A stretch of DNA of 35,706 bases from a virus (taxonomy: Duplodnaviria > Heunggongvirae > Uroviricota > Caudoviricetes), in the IMG/VR virus record IMGVR_UViG_2698536570_000003, positions 1 to 35,706 of that record; one strand, given 5' to 3'. The notes under the pieces are model-generated. The model was not told the DNA's origin, searched no databases, and saw only the letters and a program-made list of their open reading frames with translations. Each line of letters begins with the position of its first letter. Positions within the stretch are counted from its first letter, which is position 1. This document shows, one piece after another, positions 10,830 through 24,952 of this stretch. Both the position numbers and the translations under genes were made by a program.

Positions 10830-14510
<3,681 letters not shown>

Positions 14511-16172: not shown

Positions 16173-16227
16173 CCTGACCCTTCATCACTAAAGGCCGCCT
16201 GTGCGGCTTTTTTTACGGGATTTTTTT

Positions 16228-17160
16228 ATGTCGATGTACACAACCGCCCAGCTGCTGGCGGCAAATGAGCAGAAATTTAAGTTTGATCCGCTGTTTCTGC
16301 GTCTCTTTTTCCGTGAGAGCTATCCCTTCACTACGGAGAAAGTCTATCTCTCACAAATTCCGGGACTGGTAAACATGGCGCTGTACGTTTCGCCGATTGT
16401 TTCCGGTGAGGTTATCCGTTCCCGTGGCGGCTCCACCTCTGAATTTACGCCGGGATATGTCAAACCCAAGCATGAGGTGAATCCGCAGATGACCCTGCGT
16501 CGCCTGCCGGATGAAGATCCACAGAATCTGGCGGACCCGGCTTACCGCCGCCGTCGCATCATCATGCAGAACATGCGAGACGAAGAGCTGGCCATTGCTC
16601 AGGTCGAAGAGATGCAGGCAGTTTCTGCCGTGCTCAAGGGCAAATACACCATGACCGGTGAAGCCTTCGATCCGGTTGAGGTGGATATGGGCCGCAGTGA
16701 AGCGAATAACATCACACAGTCTGGCGTCACGGAGTGGAGCAAGCGTGACAAGTCCACGTATGACCCGACCGACGATATCGAAGCCTACGCGCTGAACGCC
16801 AGCGGCGTGGTGAATATCATCGTGTTTGACCCGAAAGGCTGGGCGCTGTTCCGTTCCTTCAAAGCCGTCAGGGAGAAGCTGGATACCCGTCGCGGCTCTC
16901 ATTCCGAACTGGAGACAGCGGTAAAAGACCTGGGCAAAGCGGTGTCTTATAAGGGAATGTATGGCGATGTGGCCATCGTCGTGTATTCCGGACAGTACGT
17001 GGAAAACGGCGTCAAAAAGAACTTCCTGCCGGACAACACGATGGTGCTGGGTAACACTCATGCACGCGGTCTGCGCACCTATGGCTGTATTCAGGATGCG
17101 GATGCATTGAGTGAGGGTATTAATGCGTCTCCCCGTTATCCGAAAAACTGGAAGACATGA
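16228..17160 (+). pseudogene. E: major capsid protein gpE, N-terminal 312 codons, interrupted; stop codon TGA supplied by the first bases of the insertion
   Basis: MSMYTTAQLLAANEQKFKFDPLF... matches lambda E up to ...PRYPKNWKT, then stop; the missing 29-codon C-terminus is at 24857-24952. Confidence 0.88.
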
Positions 17161-17202
17161 TCCACCGCGCGATAAATAAGCCGCAATCCGTGAGATAAAT
17201 GG
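17158..17202. repeat. left terminal region of insertion (TGATCC..., GATAAATA at 17171, CCGTGAGATAAATGG at 17188)
   Basis: Motifs mirror the right end in reverse complement. Confidence 0.6.
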
Positions 17203-17218
17203 ACACGGTGCGGCTTTT
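17180..17218 (+). terminator. hairpin plus T-run just inside left end of insertion
   Basis: GCCGCAATCCGTG...CACGGTGCGGC followed by TTTT; would stop read-through from E. Confidence 0.4.
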
Positions 17219-17245
17219 CAGATACTGCAAAGGAATTACAAATTA

Positions 17246-19723
17246 TCAGTCGTAAGCAACCCGGCGCTTACGGGCAAGAATAGCTTCCAGCGCTCTTTCA
17301 ATCTCAGGAATGGACAGCTTAAGCGCATTCGCTACATCCGGTGCTGGTGACTTGTTCTTGCCATCAATATAGATATGGTTAATGACGTTAATCCCTGCAC
17401 CTGCCGGTGAATGTGAATCCCGGCCTCTGGATAAGGTAAGGTCGCCGCGCATATAGCGCTCTAATACGGGTGGTACTTTCGGTACATCCGGCACCATCAT
17501 ATCAGCCAGCCGCGAGGAGGCTTTTAGCGCCAGCGATGCAGACTGACCGATACCAATCGCCGCCCCTTCTGCGATGTTTGAACCGAAGCCCATAAAGACC
17601 CGGCTTGGCGAGTGAATCCCCAGCTTTTCCTTGAACCACCCGCCGACGCTATCGCCCATCTCGGTAACGGTATTCTTGAGCGACTCCCACTTATTTTTGA
17701 TACCGTTCACCAGTCCGTCAATCAGGTGACCGCCAAACTCGGTAAACTGGCCGGGAAGGTCGATGTTAAACCACTTCATGACCCCCGCAAACGCCTTGTA
17801 GAACAGCCCCAGCGGCGACCAGTTCAGGATTAGCTTACTGACGCCGAGAACGCCGCCGTTAAAGGCCGTTTTGACTTCCTCCCATCGCTGTGAGAACCAT
17901 CGACTTATTGCCCCCCAGTTGCGGTATATCAGGTATGCGCCCCCGGCGATGACGGTTATCGCAATGCCTAAGGGATTCATCATCAGCGCCCGGCCAAACC
18001 AGAGAAATGCTTTTGCAACGACCATGACGCCCCTGAACAGCCCACCTGCCAGCGCTTTACCCAGCGTCCCGGCTCCCTTCGCTACGGTACTGAATCCAGT
18101 AGCCAGCCAGCGCAACCTGCCACCAACACCAAGTGCGGCTTTCAGCTTCACCCAATGAGTGTGTACCAGAACAGCGTTTTTCCACATCCCAACAAAAGGT
18201 GAAAAAAGCAGATTAAGGCCGAGCTTCAGACCGACAGTGGCAATTTTCAGCCCCAGCAGTGCGCCCACGGTTTTTGCCACACCCTGAACAAGCGTCGGAT
18301 GTTGCTCTATCCAGAGCTTCGTTGTCTGAATCATCGGGATTAATTGCCGGGTTGCTGACACAAATGTAGGGGACAACTGATCGCCGAGAGAGATAGATAA
18401 ATCACGGGTGTTTATCATCAGGGCTTTGGTTGCTTCCAGCGGCGATTTGAGCCTTTCAGCATAGGATGCCGCCAGCAGGTCATTATCAGCCGCTTTAAGT
18501 GCACCAGAGCGGATTGCCCTGTATTTATCCATGTTAGCAAGCATAGGGCGAACGAACGCCATTACCTGCATATCGGTGAACATCTCACCCAGCCCAAAGT
18601 TTTTAGCCAGACTTTGTAAGGCCTCGTCCCGCGCTTTGTTGTCCTGAATTTGCATTGCGGATTTAAAACCAGCCAGAGCTTTCGGACTCGTTGCATTAAG
18701 GTATCTTTGGGTTACATCCAGCATACCTTCAATGGGGGAAACTCCGGCTGCTTTATAATTCGCAAGAGACCCCATCAGGTCGATACCTAAATCGGCAAAT
18801 CGCTTCTGCGTATCAGGCGCAAAAATCTTGGTGAGGAAGTTCCTGAAATTGTTTGCAGTCTCATCCGGTGAACCTGAACCAATCATAGCGACCTGCAAAC
18901 TGGCCCCAATCTCCGCCACTGCATCCTTACCGTCTGCAATACCCTGCATCATCGGCGCAAGCGACTGAATCCATTTCACCTGGTCAGGGATTTCAAAAGA
19001 CCCCTGGTCACCTGCGTAGGCCATGATGTTCTGTACCGCGCCAAATTCTTTTGCGCTGCCTTTCAGCGAGTTTTGCCACACCGCCGCAACCTTTGCCCAT
19101 TCCGTTCCTGCGGTACGGGTTGCCGTGGCTGCACGGGCGATATTCGGCATGTAGTTGCCAATATCTGAAAGCCCGTCAATGTTATCGCTGATAAGTGAAC
19201 CAACGGCGTCCTGCATATCGCTCTGATACTGGTTGTATTTGAGCGACCACCCTTTGATTTGCTCTCCCAGAGTCTTACGGGTTTTATCGTCATATTTCGC
19301 TGTGATTGACATATCAATCATTTTATCTTCAAACGATGCCGACTGTTCTATAGCCGGGGACACAAGACTGTAAGCAGCCCTGACTTGTGCATACGCCTCT
19401 ACTCCCTGACCGTAGAGCGCCATGCGGTTAGATTTCAGGGCGTCAGAAGTGGCAGACGCTGCCGACAGGCGGGACTGCTGGCGGTTAAGCTGTTCCAGCG
19501 TTCTGCCGACCCGTTGCAGGTCATTGTTCAGGCGCGAGGCTACGCCCGAACCAACCTGACCGTAACGCTGCATGGCGCGTGACAGGCTGCTTTGCTGCTC
19601 CGTCAGTCGGCGTGAGGTGTCGCCGAGAGAATCCAGAGTACGCCGGGTACTGCTCATCGCGGAACGAAAACTGCTCCCGACAATGCCGCCAATCATCACG
19701 CCAACAGAAAAATTATTGCTCAT
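17246..19723 (-). CDS. tape-measure-like protein (825 aa)
   Basis: Long helical N-terminal part, Gly/Trp/Phe-rich hydrophobic middle, C-terminal GIHSPSRVF-type motif; no search run. Confidence 0.55.
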   Translation of the reverse strand: MSNNFSVGVMIGGIVGSSFRSAMSSTRRTLDSLGDTSRRLTEQQSSLSRAMQRYGQVGSGVASRLNNDLQRVGRTLEQLNRQQSRLSAASATSDALKSNRMALYGQGVEAYAQVRAAYSLVSPAIEQSASFEDKMIDMSITAKYDDKTRKTLGEQIKGWSLKYNQYQSDMQDAVGSLISDNIDGLSDIGNYMPNIARAATATRTAGTEWAKVAAVWQNSLKGSAKEFGAVQNIMAYAGDQGSFEIPDQVKWIQSLAPMMQGIADGKDAVAEIGASLQVAMIGSGSPDETANNFRNFLTKIFAPDTQKRFADLGIDLMGSLANYKAAGVSPIEGMLDVTQRYLNATSPKALAGFKSAMQIQDNKARDEALQSLAKNFGLGEMFTDMQVMAFVRPMLANMDKYRAIRSGALKAADNDLLAASYAERLKSPLEATKALMINTRDLSISLGDQLSPTFVSATRQLIPMIQTTKLWIEQHPTLVQGVAKTVGALLGLKIATVGLKLGLNLLFSPFVGMWKNAVLVHTHWVKLKAALGVGGRLRWLATGFSTVAKGAGTLGKALAGGLFRGVMVVAKAFLWFGRALMMNPLGIAITVIAGGAYLIYRNWGAISRWFSQRWEEVKTAFNGGVLGVSKLILNWSPLGLFYKAFAGVMKWFNIDLPGQFTEFGGHLIDGLVNGIKNKWESLKNTVTEMGDSVGGWFKEKLGIHSPSRVFMGFGSNIAEGAAIGIGQSASLALKASSRLADMMVPDVPKVPPVLERYMRGDLTLSRGRDSHSPAGAGINVINHIYIDGKNKSPAPDVANALKLSIPEIERALEAILARKRRVAYD

Positions 19724-19755
19724 GGTTCACTCCGGTAATGAGTGGTTCGGTGGCG

Positions 19756-20349
19756 TCATTCGGTCAGGGACAGGCCGCTGATTCCGGTAATCCCGGCAAT
19801 TTCCTCGCTGACAGCCATCAGTTCACTTTCAAGCCCGGTACGTTCGCTGACCAGCGCCGCAACGGTCTTACGGCGTTCTGCCAGTGACGGAAGTTTGTCA
19901 TTGCCCCACACCACGCTTTTATCCTTCTTAAGCGCTTCGGTCAGGCGGGTGGCGACCACATCCGGGAAGAAAAAGCAGAGCTTGCGCATAACCGCCATCC
20001 CGGTATCAGCCGGGGAGATGTTTCCACCCAACCCCACCAGACGGAACAGGCCGGAAATATCGCCGCTCTCATTCTCCAGATTGCCCCAGCGTTCGGCGTT
20101 CCCTTCACTGCCGGAACTGTTGCAGAGGACACGCTTGAATGACTGATATTCTTCCTGCCCGAATCGCTCAATATATTCAGGAATGAAAGAACAGTAATCA
20201 TTAAGCGATAAAGGCATATCCTGTAATGTGGTTATTTCGCCGTTAATTTCACTAATGCGGCGAGAGAGTTTTTCTTTCTGCTCATTCAGGGAGGCAAGAT
20301 TATTTTTAACGGCGTTCAGTGCTTCGATAAGGGAAATAACTGGTTTCAT
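19756..20349 (-). CDS. hypothetical protein with N-terminal coiled coil (197 aa); chaperone or scaffold candidate
   Basis: ORF in track, directly upstream of the tape-measure-like gene. Confidence 0.4.
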   Translation of the reverse strand: MKPVISLIEALNAVKNNLASLNEQKEKLSRRISEINGEITTLQDMPLSLNDYCSFIPEYIERFGQEEYQSFKRVLCNSSGSEGNAERWGNLENESGDISGLFRLVGLGGNISPADTGMAVMRKLCFFFPDVVATRLTEALKKDKSVVWGNDKLPSLAERRKTVAALVSERTGLESELMAVSEEIAGITGISGLSLTE

Positions 20350-20350
20350 T

Positions 20351-20965
20351 TTAATAACTCCAGATAAAAGGCGTGGTGAGTGTGAGTGCTTCGGAATAGG
20401 AGACGTTACAGGCTTCGCTTACATCCTTTATTAAAAGGTGCTGCGCTGCTCTCTGGCTGTCAGCTATGCCGTCGAACTCTGAGAAATAAACGTGTGATTC
20501 ATTGTGACCAAAACAGACCGGGTAAGCGCTTTCCATAAATTCCACCTGCTCCAGCCCTTTAACGGCTGGCGGCTGTGAGCCGAGAAAACCGATATGGCGT
20601 AGATACCAAGCTCCGGTGCCTGCCGGGTTGCTGGCCTCGCCGGGCTTATAGAATGACGCAGATACTTTCCTGTAACGCCCTGAGCGCACCAGCCCCAGCA
20701 GGGTATCATCCGGTTTTACCAGTGCGAAAAGCCTGCCGTTCTTGCTTATCAGTCCGGTGGTTTCGCCATAGGCCGGGCTGTTACTGGCCGGATGCCCCAG
20801 ACACAGCGGCGCACCGTAACCCGCGCTGCGATAGCCGTTATAGGCCGCTGCCATGTTGTCGATATCCTCGTCGGAAAAGCTGATTTCCTGTCCCGCCATC
20901 GCGGTATGCGTTCCCGCCCGGAATATCTCAATCGTTTTCCAGTTGCCCAAATTAAGATTTGTCAT
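20351..20965 (-). CDS. hypothetical protein (204 aa), tentatively Mu gpI-like protease-domain
   Basis: Motifs RSGRYRKVSASFY and LRHIGFLGSQPPAVKGL resemble my recollection of Mu-I family proteins; recall is uncertain. Confidence 0.35.
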   Translation of the reverse strand: MTNLNLGNWKTIEIFRAGTHTAMAGQEISFSDEDIDNMAAAYNGYRSAGYGAPLCLGHPASNSPAYGETTGLISKNGRLFALVKPDDTLLGLVRSGRYRKVSASFYKPGEASNPAGTGAWYLRHIGFLGSQPPAVKGLEQVEFMESAYPVCFGHNESHVYFSEFDGIADSQRAAQHLLIKDVSEACNVSYSEALTLTTPFIWSY

Positions 20966-21007
20966 TTACCTGTTCTCGGTTGTGATGTGTAAACAGTGCT
21001 TTGCTGC

Positions 21008-21382
21008 TTAGTGTCTGGCAGCGCTATCTTTCAGGCTGTTTCTGTATTCACGGCGTTTTTGGGCGATAATGTTGTAAATCCATTGCAGGGAATAGCCGTA
21101 TTTTTTCGCTATTTCAGCGATGGGAATACCTTCATTAAAGTCTGCAAAAACCAGATCATATTTCTCTTCATTCTGGTCTTTTGTTCCTTTTGGGAAGTAA
21201 AGGTTAAGCCCGCCGTATACATCTGACAGATACGCCATGATGTCTACAGCGATAGATTCAGACTGACGTTTATCGACACCGTACATGACAAGGCGGCAGG
21301 AAATGTGCGTAGCCATATCACTAAGCACTTCGGCAGATTGACGCATTTTTTGTTTGTTGGTCATGACTATCACCCGTTGCAA
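21008..21382 (-). CDS. Mor-family transcriptional activator-like protein (124 aa)
   Basis: C-terminal half (YGGLNLYFPKG...FADFNEGIPIAEIAKKYGYSLQWIYNIIAQKRR) aligns by eye with Mu Mor HTH region. Confidence 0.55.
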   Translation of the reverse strand: MQRVIVMTNKQKMRQSAEVLSDMATHISCRLVMYGVDKRQSESIAVDIMAYLSDVYGGLNLYFPKGTKDQNEEKYDLVFADFNEGIPIAEIAKKYGYSLQWIYNIIAQKRREYRNSLKDSAARH

Positions 21383-21603
21383 TATCAGTAATTCAGTCAG
21401 AAAAGGCTTTATAAAGCTTTACAGCGTGCGACTGGCGGTAAAGGCGAACCTTGACCGCAGCAAACCAGCCTGACGGCTTAGAAAGCGTTACAGCACCTTG
21501 TTAAAGTCAGTTAATAATATCGGGTGTGGGCGGGGATGTTTTTTAATGTACTTTAGATATGAAGAAGCCCCTCAGAGGAGGGGCTTCGCGGGATTACGCC
21601 AGA

Positions 21604-21894
21604 TTATTGAGGCCGTCTGTCTTTCCTCAATCCATCAAGTAGCGCCATTGCATCAGTAACCAGTATGCCAGCAGCATCCGTAACCATAGAAACATCAGAG
21701 GATGCACATGATTTATCCGTACCTAATGTAGACGCAAAATCAAGTAGCTTACGAACTGCATCAAGTCGGTAGGTGGCAGAGTCGTAAATTAACTCCTGAT
21801 TAGCATCAGTCTTTAAAAACATAATATCATCAGAGGCACCTTGTGAAAATGACGGCATCGCACGGAAAGTATTTTGAGTTTCAGCCTGTTTCAT
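21604..21894 (-). CDS. hypothetical protein (96 aa)
   Basis: ORF in operon context, overlaps neighbour by 4 nt. Confidence 0.35.
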   Translation of the reverse strand: MKQAETQNTFRAMPSFSQGASDDIMFLKTDANQELIYDSATYRLDAVRKLLDFASTLGTDKSCASSDVSMVTDAAGILVTDAMALLDGLRKDRRPQ

Positions 21895-22652
21895 TGTGCA
21901 GCCCTCCGGCTAATAGCGAATTTATTATAAACTTCATAACTGGCAGCATTCAGTCCGGGGTTGTATTTATCAGCCAGAGCACAGGCAATCATATGTTCAA
22001 TAAATTTTGTTATTGCGTTAAGTTCGGTTTCGTCTGAATAACGCAATGCCACTTTGAGTAACTCGCGGCAATATTGCTTTTTATTCTCTTCGATTTGGCC
22101 TGATTGTTTTATTCCTGCCTTTTTATCTAACTCGTCCTCAACAGGCAAAGATGAGATATCCTCTTTATTGGTTAGCGTTCTTTCGCAAATAATATCTTCA
22201 CCAGATTGAATTACGCGCTGCAACTCTCTGGCGCTCATGCGAAGAATATCATCAAGCGTGTGGTCGTTATATGCCCCACCACTGGCAAGGAGATCCAGTG
22301 TCACTTCATCCAGCCGGGCAAGCAGATTTAACTTCGTTTTGCCGATATCTGTTTTGGCAATTGCGGCTCGTGGTGTGTCACCGCCGAACACATGAGCGAT
22401 TCGCATCGCTTTACGTGCATCGGGCAAGTTTATGCGCCATCTGTGAAGAAAGTTCGTAAACTCACCATGTTGCAGTTCCTCTTTACAGGCAAATATTTTC
22501 TTTCCCAAAGAAACCAAGCCTTCGGCCTCCGATGTCGTTTTAGCGTGAGAACTGTGAATCACGCCACTGACCACCGCAGATAAAACACTTTCTTGGTTTG
22601 TTCCAAATGAATCGTTAGACTTATCATTAGCCATGACTGTTATCCTACGCAT
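21891..22652 (-). CDS. hypothetical protein (253 aa, start uncertain), first gene of leftward operon
   Basis: ORF in track; translationally coupled to the 96-aa ORF. Confidence 0.4.
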   Translation of the reverse strand: MRRITVMANDKSNDSFGTNQESVLSAVVSGVIHSSHAKTTSEAEGLVSLGKKIFACKEELQHGEFTNFLHRWRINLPDARKAMRIAHVFGGDTPRAAIAKTDIGKTKLNLLARLDEVTLDLLASGGAYNDHTLDDILRMSARELQRVIQSGEDIICERTLTNKEDISSLPVEDELDKKAGIKQSGQIEENKKQYCRELLKVALRYSDETELNAITKFIEHMIACALADKYNPGLNAASYEVYNKFAISRRAAQ

Positions 22653-22772
22653 AACGGTTTACTGGTTAGGCCATAGCAAGTGCTCGCAACATTTGTTATG
22701 GCCGTTTCTCTAGACCTTTCCCTGTGTTAAGGTATAGACCTAATAAGCAAACACTAAGCTATAGGTCTATAC

Positions 22773-22964
22773 ATGTCAACTATCTTGCGAGATAAAAGCC
22801 CTAAAGGGGCAGGTAAAGCCCCGATGTTCAATGTCAGGATTTCACCAGAACTGAAAGAACAGTTTGAATCACAAGCAAAAAAAGAAGGTGTTAGCTTAGG
22901 GAATTGGCTCAAAGAGCTTGGGAGAGCAGAGCTTAAGCGCAACGGAATTGACCCGAAGGCTTAA
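22773..22964 (+). CDS. Arc/Mnt-like ribbon-helix-helix DNA-binding protein (63 aa)
   Basis: PMFNVRISPELKEQFESQAKKEGVSLGNWLKE fits the RHH pattern of P22 Arc; divergent from the leftward operon. Confidence 0.5.
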   Translation: MSTILRDKSPKGAGKAPMFNVRISPELKEQFESQAKKEGVSLGNWLKELGRAELKRNGIDPKA

Positions 22965-23000
22965 ATTTAGTTACTAAAAAACAATAGCTTAAGGTATTTT

Positions 23001-23086
23001 TGATAAATATTTATCACTTGTATTCGACATCATAGTGATAAATATTTATCATTCACAGCGCATCGGCACATGATAAAATGTTATCA
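23001..23086. promoter_or_regulatory. three 16-bp palindromic operator-like sites, 35 bp centre to centre
   Basis: TGATAAATATTTATCA at 23001-23016 and 23036-23051 (identical, perfect palindromes); TGATAAAATGTTATCA at 23071-23086. Confidence 0.6.
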
Positions 23087-23101
23087 CTTTGAGGCTAGTT
23101 T

Positions 23102-23446
23102 ATGCGTATACATGTTACTCTTAATGGCAAAAAAACAACCATATCGATAGATGACTTGCTCTTCGACTATCTTGGTGCATGGTTGGTTGAACAAAGACCC
23201 AAACTGCACTCAAAACCTAAAGAGCAGTATGACCAAGCTAAGTCTCAGATTCGTAAATATGTGCAAGATAACGCAGAAAAACTCCCATCTAAGAACCTTA
23301 GCCAGCACATACAAAATGCCATTTTAGAAATAATTATGCCGAAAGAATTAAATGAAATTCTAGAGAAAAGAGGGCCAAGATATGAGAAGAAAAAGTTTGA
23401 TGTGACCACAATTTTCCCTGATTGGGAAAATTATCTGAGAAAGTAA
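23102..23446 (+). CDS. hypothetical protein (114 aa), possible DNA-binding/regulatory
   Basis: ORF in track with GAGG RBS, directly after the operator array. Confidence 0.45.
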   Translation: MRIHVTLNGKKTTISIDDLLFDYLGAWLVEQRPKLHSKPKEQYDQAKSQIRKYVQDNAEKLPSKNLSQHIQNAILEIIMPKELNEILEKRGPRYEKKKFDVTTIFPDWENYLRK

Positions 23447-23465
23447 TTAAATCAATGGATTGTAT

Positions 23466-23607
23466 ACCGCTCAGCGCTGAGCGGTTCTGTGGCTCTAGAT
23501 CTGCCAACGTTGGCAGATTTGCCAATACCGCATTTGATTGATGGTATCGAATCGCAAATGTCCCAGCGCTGGGAATCATCCCCAAAGGCGCAGACATCTG
23601 CGCCTTT
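23466..23607. repeat. cluster of four distinct palindromes/hairpins
   Basis: ACCGCTCAGCGCTGAGCGGT (23466-23485), ATCTGCCAACGTTGGCAGAT (23499-23518), TCCCAGCGCTGGGA (23561-23574), AAAGGCGCAGA-CA-TCTGCGCCTTT (23584-23607). Confidence 0.6.
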
Positions 23608-23734
23608 GAGAAGCACGGAACTAAAATCCGTTTCACTGTATGACTGTATGGTATGAGGCTTTCAGATGCTTACTGAGGCTTAAATAAGCTAATGAAGTTT
23701 GCATCATCTGTTCCAAGTTAGTACACTTATCCCT

Positions 23735-23766
23735 GTTAGTGGATGCGTGACGCGCTCTGGTTGAGG
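23735..23766. repeat. left arm of 32-bp perfect inverted repeat
   Basis: GTTAGTGGATGCGTGACGCGCTCTGGTTGAGG; exact reverse complement at 23925-23956. Confidence 0.8.
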
Positions 23767-23820
23767 CTCATTACCTTGAACAGAGATTCATCACCTTAAG
23801 CACCCAAAGAAAAAAGCCTG

Positions 23821-23870
23821 NNNNNNNNNNNNNNNNNNNNNNNNNNNNNNNNNNNNNNNNNNNNNNNNNN
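23821..23870. other. run of 50 N (assembly gap or masked sequence of unknown true length)
   Basis: Seen directly. Confidence 0.99.
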
Positions 23871-23924
23871 GCATGTGAAACGTGTTCAAGCCCTGGCTGG
23901 ATTACGGGTGGTGCCGCTCCAGTG

Positions 23925-23956
23925 CCTCAACCAGAGCGCGTCACGCATCCACTAAC
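23925..23956. repeat. right arm of 32-bp perfect inverted repeat
   Basis: CCTCAACCAGAGCGCGTCACGCATCCACTAAC. Confidence 0.8.
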
Positions 23957-24028
23957 AATGCAACACCGTTAACCAGGCAGTGGAAGGGCTTTAATGGTGA
24001 TGCCGCGCTCCTGTAGTGGAGCAAACGG

Positions 24029-24112
24029 ATGAAGGGATTTCTTCAAATCGCTGTCATCGCTCTTAAGGCAATTGTCGCCTTTATTGAGCTGATTCTGGCC
24101 TGCTTACCGTAA
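24029..24112 (+). CDS. candidate 27-aa hydrophobic peptide (MKGFLQIAVIALKAIVAFIELILACLP), type I toxin-like
   Basis: ATG with GGAG 8 nt upstream; single predicted TM helix; followed 20 nt later by a strong terminator. Confidence 0.3.
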   Translation: MKGFLQIAVIALKAIVAFIELILACLP

Positions 24113-24133
24113 GCAACCGGGAAACGTAAGTAA

Positions 24134-24166
24134 GGCCACCGGCTCACCCCCGGTGGCCTTTAACAT
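24134..24166 (+). terminator. intrinsic terminator
   Basis: GGCCACCGG-CTCACCC-CCGGTGGCC followed by TTTAACATTTT. Confidence 0.55.
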
Positions 24167-24365
24167 TTTAAGTCTGCCTCGCCGCTCTACCGGCCATTCA
24201 TTTTTGAAGCTGGCTGAGTGTTAAGGCTAAATTTAAGGTGGCACTGACGGCTTAAATTCCTGCGATATCCTGGCATGTCGTTATGATTAAAGCGCATTAG
24301 AAACAAATTTCATCGTTCTGATTAAACATGTTTACCTGACTATTCAAAGTAAGGTAAATCTCAAT

Positions 24366-24710
24366 ATGGCACGACCTCAGACGGTTAATCAGTTACCCGA
24401 CTCTATCAAGAAGAAACTGAATAAAAAGCTGACGGAAAGTTCATTCAGCGGCTACGTTCAGCTTACTGAGTGGTTAAACTCGTTGGGATACCCGGTTTCA
24501 AAATCATCAGTGCATCGCTATGCTGAACGTCGCCGCCTGTCACTTATAGCAGGGAGCGATACTCCCGGCGCAACAGCTAACATTGTGGATACGAAACTTC
24601 GCTGTCTGGAGCTTGCCTCGCTCTCTTTAAAAACGGACGAGAAGTTGTCAGCAGATGAAGTAAAAAAATATGCTGAAAATTTGATGGGGTGGCTTTACGA
24701 CCAGAAATAA
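24366..24710 (+). CDS. HTH-containing small protein (114 aa) near right end of insertion; regulator or terminase-small-subunit-like
   Basis: Segment YVQLTEWLNSLGYPVSKSSVHRYAERRR looks like a helix-turn-helix; ORF in track. Confidence 0.45.
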   Translation: MARPQTVNQLPDSIKKKLNKKLTESSFSGYVQLTEWLNSLGYPVSKSSVHRYAERRRLSLIAGSDTPGATANIVDTKLRCLELASLSLKTDEKLSADEVKKYAENLMGWLYDQK

Positions 24711-24809
24711 TTGACTGCGCGGGAGGCGTGCCCTCCCGTTACGTATATGGAAACTGTTTTACAAATTCCCATCCAACCTTTTCCAACATCTTCCCCCATA
24801 GTCCCACAA

Positions 24810-24850
24810 TTATCTCACGGATAACCCTGTATTTATCTCATGTCTAATCA
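24810..24850. repeat. right terminal region of insertion (reverse complement carries CCGTGAGATAA at +30 and CATGAGATAAATA at +8)
   Basis: Mirrors the left end. Confidence 0.6.
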
Positions 24851-24856
24851 AAGACA

Positions 24857-24952
24857 TCCGGCGATCCGGCGCGAGAGTTCACCATGATTCAGTCAGCACC
24901 GCTGATGCTGCTGGCTGATCCTGATGAGTTCGTGTCCGTTCAACTGGCGTAA
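24857..24952 (+). pseudogene. E: detached C-terminal 31 codons of major capsid gene E (SGDPAREFTMIQSAPLMLLADPDEFVSVQLA)
   Basis: Matches the lambda E C-terminus; in frame with the N-terminal fragment if 17158-24856 is removed. Confidence 0.85.

Follow-up and report, generated by a model that had tools for sequence, protein, structure and literature searches.

A 7.7-kb element in the capsid gene of a lambda-type prophage, a probable satellite of Bcepmuvirus-type transposable phages

The insertion in capsid gene E and the content of the element

The DNA stretch analyzed here (the window, 35,706 nucleotides) covers positions 1 to 35,706 of the IMG/VR record IMGVR_UViG_2698536570_000003 (Caudoviricetes). 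It involves a lambda-type prophage, the major capsid gene E of which is interrupted by an element of 7,693 bp (7,754 bp when an internal gap of N letters is filled). We consider it probable (about 65%) that this element is a non-autonomous transposable phage satellite, which was derived from BcepMu-type (Bcepmuvirus) phages and lives on them as its helpers. Mobilization of the element in trans by a Bcepmuvirus transposase is highly probable, and we infer that it also hijacks the virions of its helpers. The features of the locus are listed below with their window coordinates, and the strand is given for the genes:

16201–17157, plus strand: 5' part of capsid gene E (Pfam Phage_cap_E, E-value 3.6e-61; partial major capsid protein of Escherichia coli AW1.7 in RefSeq)
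17152–17157: left copy of the target-site duplication, AAGACA
17158–17242: end A, on the tape-measure side (TGAT tip; boxes CGCGCGATAAAT at 17166–17177 and CCGTGAGATAAATGG at 17188–17202, presumed transposase-binding sites)
17246–19723, minus strand: tail tape measure protein (TMP), 825 amino acids (Pfam PhageMin_Tail, PHROG TMP families)
19756–20349, minus strand: p197, helical coiled-coil partner of the short protease, orphan family restricted to these elements
20351–20965, minus strand: p204, short prohead maturation protease (protease domain plus C-terminal tail)
21008–21364, minus strand: Mor-family transcription activator (Pfam Mor, E-value 1.7e-21; PHROG late transcriptional activator)
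21604–21894, minus strand: p96 (no Pfam or PHROG family match; copies 33–57% identical to one another)
21891–22652, minus strand: DUF3102-like protein (Pfam DUF3102)
22773–22964, plus strand: Arc-like ribbon-helix-helix protein, annotated as HicB antitoxin (PHROG Arc-like repressor, E-value 1e-6; alleles diverge between copies)
23001–23086: three palindromic operator-like sites TGATAAATATTTATCA with 35-bp spacing, between the Arc-like gene and p114
23102–23446, plus strand: p114 (no family match; other genes in its place in other copies)
23447–24365: stretch of about 0.9 kb free of open reading frames, with 34-nt inverted repeats and the N gap inside
24366–24710, plus strand: Gp27N, 114 amino acids (Pfam Phage_Mu_Gp27 over residues 7–55 only; PHROG terminase small subunit)
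24766–24850: end B (TGAT tip on the complementary strand; boxes TGAGATAAAT and GTGAGATAATT, then phased TGGGA/TGGA repeats; presumed transposase sites and a candidate packaging site)
24851–24856: right copy of the target-site duplication, AAGACA
24857–24952, plus strand: 3' remainder of capsid gene E (the joined translation ends with SGDPAREFTMIQSAPLMLLADPDEFVSVQLA and the stop)

The truncated reading frame of gene E (16201–17160) enters the element and its stop codon is the first triplet of the inserted DNA, TGA (17158–17160). The tips read TGATCC from 17158 and CTAATCA up to 24850, and TGATCC...CTAATCA tips were confirmed in all copies of the element. When position 17157 was joined to position 24857, leaving a single AAGACA, we obtained an intact E frame with a lambda-like C-terminus, and the joined 200 bp matched major capsid genes without an interruption at 100% identity, with 441 E. 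coli records at 99% or more. Empty-site alleles with a single AAGACA exist in hundreds of E. coli genomes, and the duplication comprises 6 bp. An initial annotation of the window had described the interruption of E, the hexamer at both borders, the tips, and the stop codon donated by the element, and all of these observations held. The same is true for an 11-mer located 30 bp inside each terminus, which is CCGTGAGATAA and starts at base 31 of each tip in inverted orientation, and for a second copy of the motif nearer to the tips, which corresponds to a GATAAAT box at bases 12–20. The assignment to DDE-type transposition with a 5–6 bp duplication was supported and the duplication can be fixed at 6 bp, but the tips are of the Bcepmuvirus type and not of the Mu, Tn7, or Tn402 type that had been suggested.

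An identical arrangement with identical junctions is present in two complete assemblies of E. coli AW1.7, and this agreement indicates that the structure is not a chimera. In the identical gap-free AW1.7 copy, the 50-N gap of the window (23821–23870) corresponds to 111 bp. The initial annotation had placed the missing transposase either in this gap or in trans. Since a segment of 111 bp does not hide a transposase, the first option is ruled out and the enzyme must act in trans. The scaffold gap might also have suggested an assembly artefact (a chimeric join across the gap or at the capsid gene junctions). However, the concordance of the two AW1.7 assemblies, the small size of the closed gap, and the precise duplications at many other sites leave a negligible probability for this explanation, which the complete genomes already refute.

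The insertion disables the capsid gene of the lambda-type prophage. Since the target sites of the element do not share a consensus, the choice of gene E appears to be incidental. Elsewhere in this prophage, the segment 4001–10000 of the window has a G+C content of 36–47%, compared with 51–60% in the rest of the window.

The element comprises nine protein genes. Six of them occupy the minus strand from end A inward and are followed by a plus-strand set toward end B. When we searched the element (including its gap-free copy) against Pfam and PHROGs, we detected no transposase, MuB-like ATPase, integrase, primase or other replication gene, capsid, portal, or large terminase. A PADLOC search yielded no meaningful matches, and defense cargo was not found. 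For TMP, p197, p204, Mor, and Gp27N, five diverged E. coli copies gave ratios of nonsynonymous to synonymous substitution rates (dN/dS) of 0.04–0.25 at dS values of 0.2–0.6, and these five genes are under purifying selection. The TMP gene is full length and under strong selection (dN/dS 0.08–0.14), and Mor reached values of 0.04–0.13. The length of TMP varies by internal duplication, with 825, 827, 963, and 1,026 amino acids in copies of the element and 821 and 983 amino acids in helpers. The region of the Arc-like, p96, DUF3102, and p114 genes is allelically diverse and resembles a phage immunity region.

Element ends, Bcepmuvirus-type helpers, and mobility

The invertase-side tip of Bcepmuvirus prophages could be aligned in register with end A, the identity of which to the ends of helper-type prophages amounted to 76–80% in about 50 genomes. 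For end B, the in-register counterpart is the Mor-side tip of the helper prophage, and end B also matched helper ends in E. coli genomes. Over the approximately 85 bp per tip that could be aligned between element and helper prophage, the tip itself and the two boxes of each end were identical and the spacers had diverged, which is the pattern expected of protein-binding sites. At the sequence level, the element keeps both cis-acting tips of the helper and the 6-bp duplication of the helper.

Searches with the tips yielded 76–88% matches in about 50 to 120 further E. coli genomes (the element's own copies excluded). In several genomes for which both tips were listed, the two matches were located about 34–36 kb apart, and these are complete transposable prophages. 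We examined two helper prophages of 34–35 kb, which are inserted between yjfY and ulaF in strain G5 and between dsdA and dsdX in strain S12. They are bounded by TGAT...ATCA tips (TGATGC...CTAATCA) and by the 6-bp duplications CGAAAC and AATGTG, respectively. Their gene products include a DDE (Rve) transposase, an ExeA/MuB-like ATPase, a DUF3102 protein, and Mor, and the packaging and head genes encode a DUF3486/Gp27 small terminase, a large terminase, a portal, a protease/scaffold protein, and a capsid protein. P2-like tail genes and a Gin-like invertase gene are also present. Their transposase shares 68% identity with BcepMu gp09 and 93–100% identity with the enzymes of Escherichia phages PhiKM and Phi06_2974 B and of Klebsiella phage KP12, and the classification places PhiKM in the genus Bcepmuvirus. 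Relatives of BcepMu have been described to end in TG...CA and to encode an Rve transposase related to that of Tn552 (PMC2628397).

The homologous proteins of element and helper have diverged to different degrees. Compared with the G5 prophage, we calculated identities of 48% for TMP, 46% for p204 (first 134 amino acids of a 365-residue protein), 45% for Gp27N, 31% for the DUF3102-like protein, and 28% for Mor. A second helper type has a more closely related TMP (71% identity over 699 amino acids). In Gp27N, the DNA-binding N-terminus of a small terminase (Mu Gp27/DUF3486 type) is fused to an unrelated C-terminus. The similarity of Gp27N to the helper protein of 181 amino acids covers the first 55 residues of the latter, and its gene stops 140 bp from end B. 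The helper homologue of the DUF3102-like gene is located immediately upstream of the helper transposase gene. Several genes of the element are inverted relative to the helper, and thus its layout is not the product of a simple deletion.

A helper-type transposase gene was detected in 639 of 5,426 complete E. coli genomes (12%). Among the complete E. coli genomes that carry the element, this fraction was 25/33. These carriers represent only about five independent lineages, two of which have the helper, and therefore the association is not decisive. In E. coli AW1.7, the helper transposase gene has matches at two additional places, as has each of the tips, and from these place counts we infer the presence of resident helpers.

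The initial annotation had proposed the recurrence of the end sequences in other genomic contexts as a check on mobility, and we found many further copies with 6-bp duplications of their own. For 16 independent insertions both junctions could be read, and all of them exhibited the same tips and a perfect 6-bp duplication, the sequence of which differed from site to site. The borders of the element are thus not fortuitous. The family members have a size of about 7.6–8.2 kb, and near-identical copies occupy at least 15 other sites in E. coli and further Enterobacterales. In complete E. coli genomes, related copies (88–93% DNA identity) occupy four other loci (within glvC, in the dacD–sbmC and serW–infA intervals, and near ybhC/ybhJ), and an exact look-up of the p197 protein located near-identical elements at nine chromosomal sites beyond the AW1.7 capsid gene site. 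Additional copies were found in IMG/VR contigs, in Erwinia tracheiphila, and in Intestinirhabdus and Tenebrionibacter. Protein identities of 82–95% were observed in Citrobacter, Enterobacter, Salmonella, Pseudocitrobacter, Erwinia, Intestinirhabdus, and Tenebrionibacter, and more distant family members (48–66%) occur in Yersinia intermedia and Dickeya. A metagenome contig with a length of 7,799 bp starts and stops exactly at the two tips, which is the outcome expected for a sample in which the element was flanked by many different sequences. Taken together, these data show that the element has recently moved to many sites. Its random insertion knocks out genes, such as the prophage capsid gene in the window and glvC, ynfE/F, and ulaF elsewhere.

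Some of the insertion sites are located in other mobile DNA. One copy from the p197 look-up lies within a P4/PICI-like island (GCA_030897045.1), the genes of which include those for a D5-type primase, an integrase, and a capsid protein. Another one was found in a myovirus prophage (IMG/VR UViG 2713896776) between the head-completion and tail-terminator genes (target-site duplication GGTGCA). Including the lambda capsid gene, 3 of about 20 insertion sites fall into prophages or satellites, a possible excess. A further copy, in or next to ulaF and beside yjfY, shares its neighborhood with the G5 helper but occupies a different site with a different duplication (CCATTT vs. CGAAAC).

The serW-infA copies form a variant that is present in 23 genomes (strain SK1144 and 22 similar genomes), apparently of one lineage; several of these strains are typed O25:H4, and the helper at this site occurs in ST131 strains. 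End A, the p197 and p204 genes, the Arc-like gene, and a divergent form of Mor are retained in the variant, but the TMP gene is missing. An IS5 transposase follows, so that the other end of the variant may be disrupted. As implied by the counts given above, the 23 genomes also have the helper transposase gene. At a distance of about 110 kb from the variant, an ABC-transporter gene of these genomes harbors a helper-type prophage.

The protease-partner pair and regulatory sites

The p204 protein matched the head-maturation-protease family of PHROGs with an E-value of 2e-45, and the match covered only the N-terminal domain of the profile. The predicted fold is that of assemblin and T4 gp21. Proteases of the assemblin type carry a Ser-His-His triad, and His58, Ser102, and His124 of p204, which are invariant in alignments with short and full-length relatives, fit this pattern. 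An exhaustive HMMER search separated two length classes. Proteins of about 190–210 amino acids matched p204 over its whole length, and protease/scaffold proteins of 340–400 amino acids matched residues 10–150 (approximately) only. In eight of nine cases, the tails of the short forms aligned to the last 35 or so residues of the 365-residue helper protein, with z-scores between 3.5 and 14. From these alignments, the short form looks like a protease with a C-terminal tail that lacks the scaffold-length middle part.

The partner protein p197 belongs to an orphan family of 34 clusters, all of which originate from Enterobacterales. It is predicted to form a helical coiled coil, and its structural neighbors were uninformative. 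Short p204 homologues were always followed by a gene encoding 180–241 amino acids, and in the two contexts tested the homology of this partner to p197 was confirmed (35–37% identity). We observed this arrangement in three other settings. Tyrosine integrase-AlpA-Ash-primase islands of about 8 kb constitute the first of them; one of these islands has flanking tRNA-like att repeats, and Mor adjoins the pair in one of two islands, with none called in the other. The second setting comprises mini-Mu elements of about 8 kb, which carry MuA-like and MuB-like genes of their own together with Mor and are bounded by host genes. One of them encodes a Gp27 fragment of 92 amino acids. In the third setting, a short contig, the two genes are followed by Mor. 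Thus, the pair, usually together with Mor, resides on at least three mobility backbones, all of which are small and lack virion genes, and this distribution is the strongest argument for a satellite over a plain transposon or a prophage remnant. The recurrence of the pair points to a larger group of Mu-like phage satellites that is so far undescribed.

The three operator-like sites TGATAAATATTTATCA overlap sigma-70-like promoters upstream of p114. Four matches to this motif were found compared with 0.18 expected by chance per window, and three of the four are located at these sites. The neighboring Arc-like protein is a candidate repressor of the element. The GATAAAT half-site of the motif recurs at both tips, where it forms the core of the terminal boxes. 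In the helper prophage examined, no match to TGATAAATATTTATCA was detected within three mismatches, and the idea of an operator or enhancer shared with the helper was rejected.

The ORF-free stretch (ORF, open reading frame) contains perfect 34-nt inverted repeats TGTTAGTGGATGCGTGACGCGCTCTGGTTGAGGC at 23734–23767 and 23924–23957, which enclose 217 nt in the gap-free copy (locus coordinates of the repeat region, 12577–12861) and probably caused the assembly gap. In the gap-free copy, the enclosed segment contains a terminator-like hairpin and a TTGAAT-16-TATAAT promoter, which is directed toward Gp27N. The repeats may form an RNA structure or a regulatory switch. A switch that operates by inversion is unsupported since the inner segment has the same orientation in all of the approximately 20 copies. 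An Rfam search of the whole element returned nothing above threshold. Upstream of Mor we observed a dyad GCTGTAAAGCTTTATAAAGC (21406–21425) with a degenerate second copy 69 bp away (21475–21494). It resembles a palindromic site GGCTGTAAAGCCTTTATAAAGG in the intergenic region upstream of the helper protease gene (G5 locus 17312–17525), and the two could represent a shared regulatory site.

Proposed life cycle, rival explanations, and known systems

The element is a mobile, conserved, and selected unit that lacks most structural genes, a general feature of phage satellites. By contrast, the hallmarks of an autonomous transposable phage are absent, since there is neither a transposase and ATPase nor a complete set of virion genes. 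The element encodes homologues of helper proteins for regulation, assembly, and packaging, namely Mor, TMP, the N-terminus of a small terminase, and an assemblin-fold protease whose tail resembles that of the helper. We propose the following life cycle. The element would remain silent under its own Arc-like repressor bound to the triple operator. Upon induction of, or infection by, a Bcepmuvirus, the DDE transposase and the ExeA-type ATPase of this phage would act on the tips and copy the element by replicative transposition. The element's Mor might then switch on the operon of the short protease, p197, and TMP, and possibly late genes of the helper. With its helper-like tail, p204 may enter or remodel helper procapsids together with p197, by analogy with CpmB of the SaPI satellites, and the capsid size would perhaps be changed. 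Gp27N, which is encoded next to end B, could steer the helper terminase to this end, so that headful packaging would be biased toward the element. The resulting particles would carry the element and flanking host DNA to new cells, where establishment would depend on recombination of the flanks or on a transposase, the source of which would be a helper that co-infects the cell or already resides in it.

Several points weigh against a satellite. Packaging into particles is a prediction at which only indirect hints point (the contig bounded by both tips and the spread across genera), and the roles of p204, p197, Gp27N, TMP, and Mor are predicted from homology and analogy. The tail similarity of p204 itself is weak (z-score 3.6), and the fold of p197 is a generic coiled coil. 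A motif search of element and helper established no shared Mor-type or late promoter, with the GCTGTAAAGCTTTATAAAGC dyad as its only yield. Co-occurrence with the helper is not obligatory, since 8 of the 33 complete carrier genomes lack a helper-type transposase gene. Moreover, an element without transposase cannot integrate alone after injection, and thus its horizontal spread is conditional.

Some of these points would suit a large non-autonomous transposon, a kind of oversized miniature inverted-repeat transposable element (MITE) of Bcepmuvirus, which the helper transposase moves between as well as within replicons and which does not exploit virions. Its phage-like genes would then have another use, such as host-beneficial interference with the helper or self-regulation of the element. 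Trans-mobilization is the only step that the data support directly, packaging is a prediction, and the eight helper-free carriers fit such a transposon. However, the cargo is specifically related to morphogenesis and packaging (Mor, TMP, the DNA-binding part of a small terminase, and a prohead protease whose tail is helper-like) and shows no matches to known defense systems. The pair, usually with Mor, also occurs in P4-like integrase/primase islands, which are known for virion hijacking, and spread across genera at more than 90% identity needs a transfer vehicle. We therefore regard a plain transposon as a distinctly weaker candidate than a satellite, although it is the most serious of the competitors.

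A decaying deletion derivative of a once complete BcepMu-like prophage that retained both ends would account for the helper-gene homologues (TMP, the protease N-terminus, Mor, DUF3102, and Gp27), and the retained genes are roughly collinear with the Mu-type gene order. What makes this origin improbable is the recurrence of the same 7.6–8.2 kb architecture at 16 or more independent sites and in several genera, together with purifying selection on all core genes. The proteins are only 28–48% identical to those of G5 (71% for TMP of the second type), while the tips retain 76–80% identity over about 85–90 bp. Several genes are inverted compared with the actual helper, and the short protease represents a widespread, distinct length class rather than a one-off truncation. 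Even less credit can be given to an autonomous element in which the DUF3102-like protein, p96, p114, or p197 acts as an unrecognized transposase. The helper-free carriers and the number of element proteins without known function would permit such an enzyme, but Pfam, PHROGs, and PADLOC revealed no RNase H/DDE, HUH, or recombinase signature in these proteins. Furthermore, p197 is a coiled coil, the tips belong to a phage with a known DDE transposase of its own, and in the helper the DUF3102 protein co-occurs with a separate transposase. A satellite of Bcepmuvirus-type phages remains the reading that we prefer.

If this reading is correct, a satellite that is amplified and inserted by the transposase of its helper would represent a new life-cycle solution, which bridges MITE-like and satellite-like parasitism. 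Mu-like phages are common, and the helper type considered here occurs in 12% of complete E. coli genomes. The protease-partner pair, usually with Mor, could serve to find more satellites of Mu-like phages, and it offers a concrete hypothesis for the takeover of capsid assembly. Experiments could readily start from E. coli AW1.7, which holds the element as well as the additional matches to the tips and the transposase of the helper.

The closest known systems include the Bcepmuvirus phages themselves (BcepMu, phiE255, PhiKM, KP12), with which the element shares the TG...CA tips, the terminal boxes, and the 6-bp duplication. The Mor, DUF3102, Gp27, protease, and TMP proteins of the two are homologous. 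However, it measures 7.7 kb compared with 34–37 kb and lacks the transposase, ATPase, capsid, portal, large terminase, tail, and lysis genes. In addition, its gene orientation differs and its proteins are 28–71% identical to theirs. As for capsid assembly, SaPI CpmB reportedly shares the C-terminal capsid-binding segment of the 80alpha scaffold and enters helper procapsids, a finding that is ascribed to Dearborn et al. in 2017. The tails of the short proteases align in a comparable way to the end of the helper protease/scaffold protein, but in the element a complete assemblin-fold protease bears the tail, the similarity for the copy in the window is weak, and an effect on capsid size is hypothetical.

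Satellites of the P4-like, PICI, cfPICI, PLE, and PICMI groups are equipped with an integrase of their own and usually also with a replicon. With P4-like satellites, PICIs, cfPICIs, and PLEs the element has in common its small size (7–15 kb), an incomplete structural gene set, a repressor and an activator of its own, and helper-like genes for morphogenesis and packaging. Unlike P4-like elements and PICIs, it carries no integrase, primase, or replicon and is found at random sites with 6-bp duplications instead of an att site. Its integration and amplification would be borrowed from the transposition machinery of the helper. A 2024 review of 'hitcher' elements lists no satellite of transposable phages (PMC11389934). 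In the literature that we searched, the coverage of which was incomplete, we found no description of such satellites, and this is absence of evidence only. The odds appear evenly balanced that the element is the first recognized natural satellite of transposable phages that borrows both transposition and virion (a 'double hitcher'), and that it represents one branch of a broader and so far undescribed class of Mu-like phage satellites of about 8 kb, which is defined by the protease-partner pair, usually with Mor, on three backbones (borrowed transposition, own MuA/MuB, and tyrosine integrase plus primase).

MITEs are likewise mobilized in trans via terminal sequences that are read by a transposase encoded elsewhere. 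They are non-coding and shorter than about 1 kb, in contrast to the 7.75 kb and nine protein genes of the element, the helper of which is a phage and not an insertion sequence. The laboratory constructs mini-Mu and mini-D3112 carry both phage ends in cis, receive A and B in trans from a helper, are replicated through transposition by this helper, and are packaged by the headful together with flanking host DNA ('mini-muduction'). Their establishment in the recipient needs helper functions or recombination. The element resembles mini-Mu in having both phage ends and a transposase from elsewhere. However, its ends are of the BcepMu type with a 6-bp duplication (5 bp for Mu), and mini-Mu phages are engineered deletions, whereas the element is a natural, diversified, and selected lineage with an immunity region of its own and with Mor, protease, partner, TMP, and small-terminase-like genes. 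If our reading holds, it would be a natural 'mini-Mu', the Mu-type headful packaging of which should carry adjacent host DNA.

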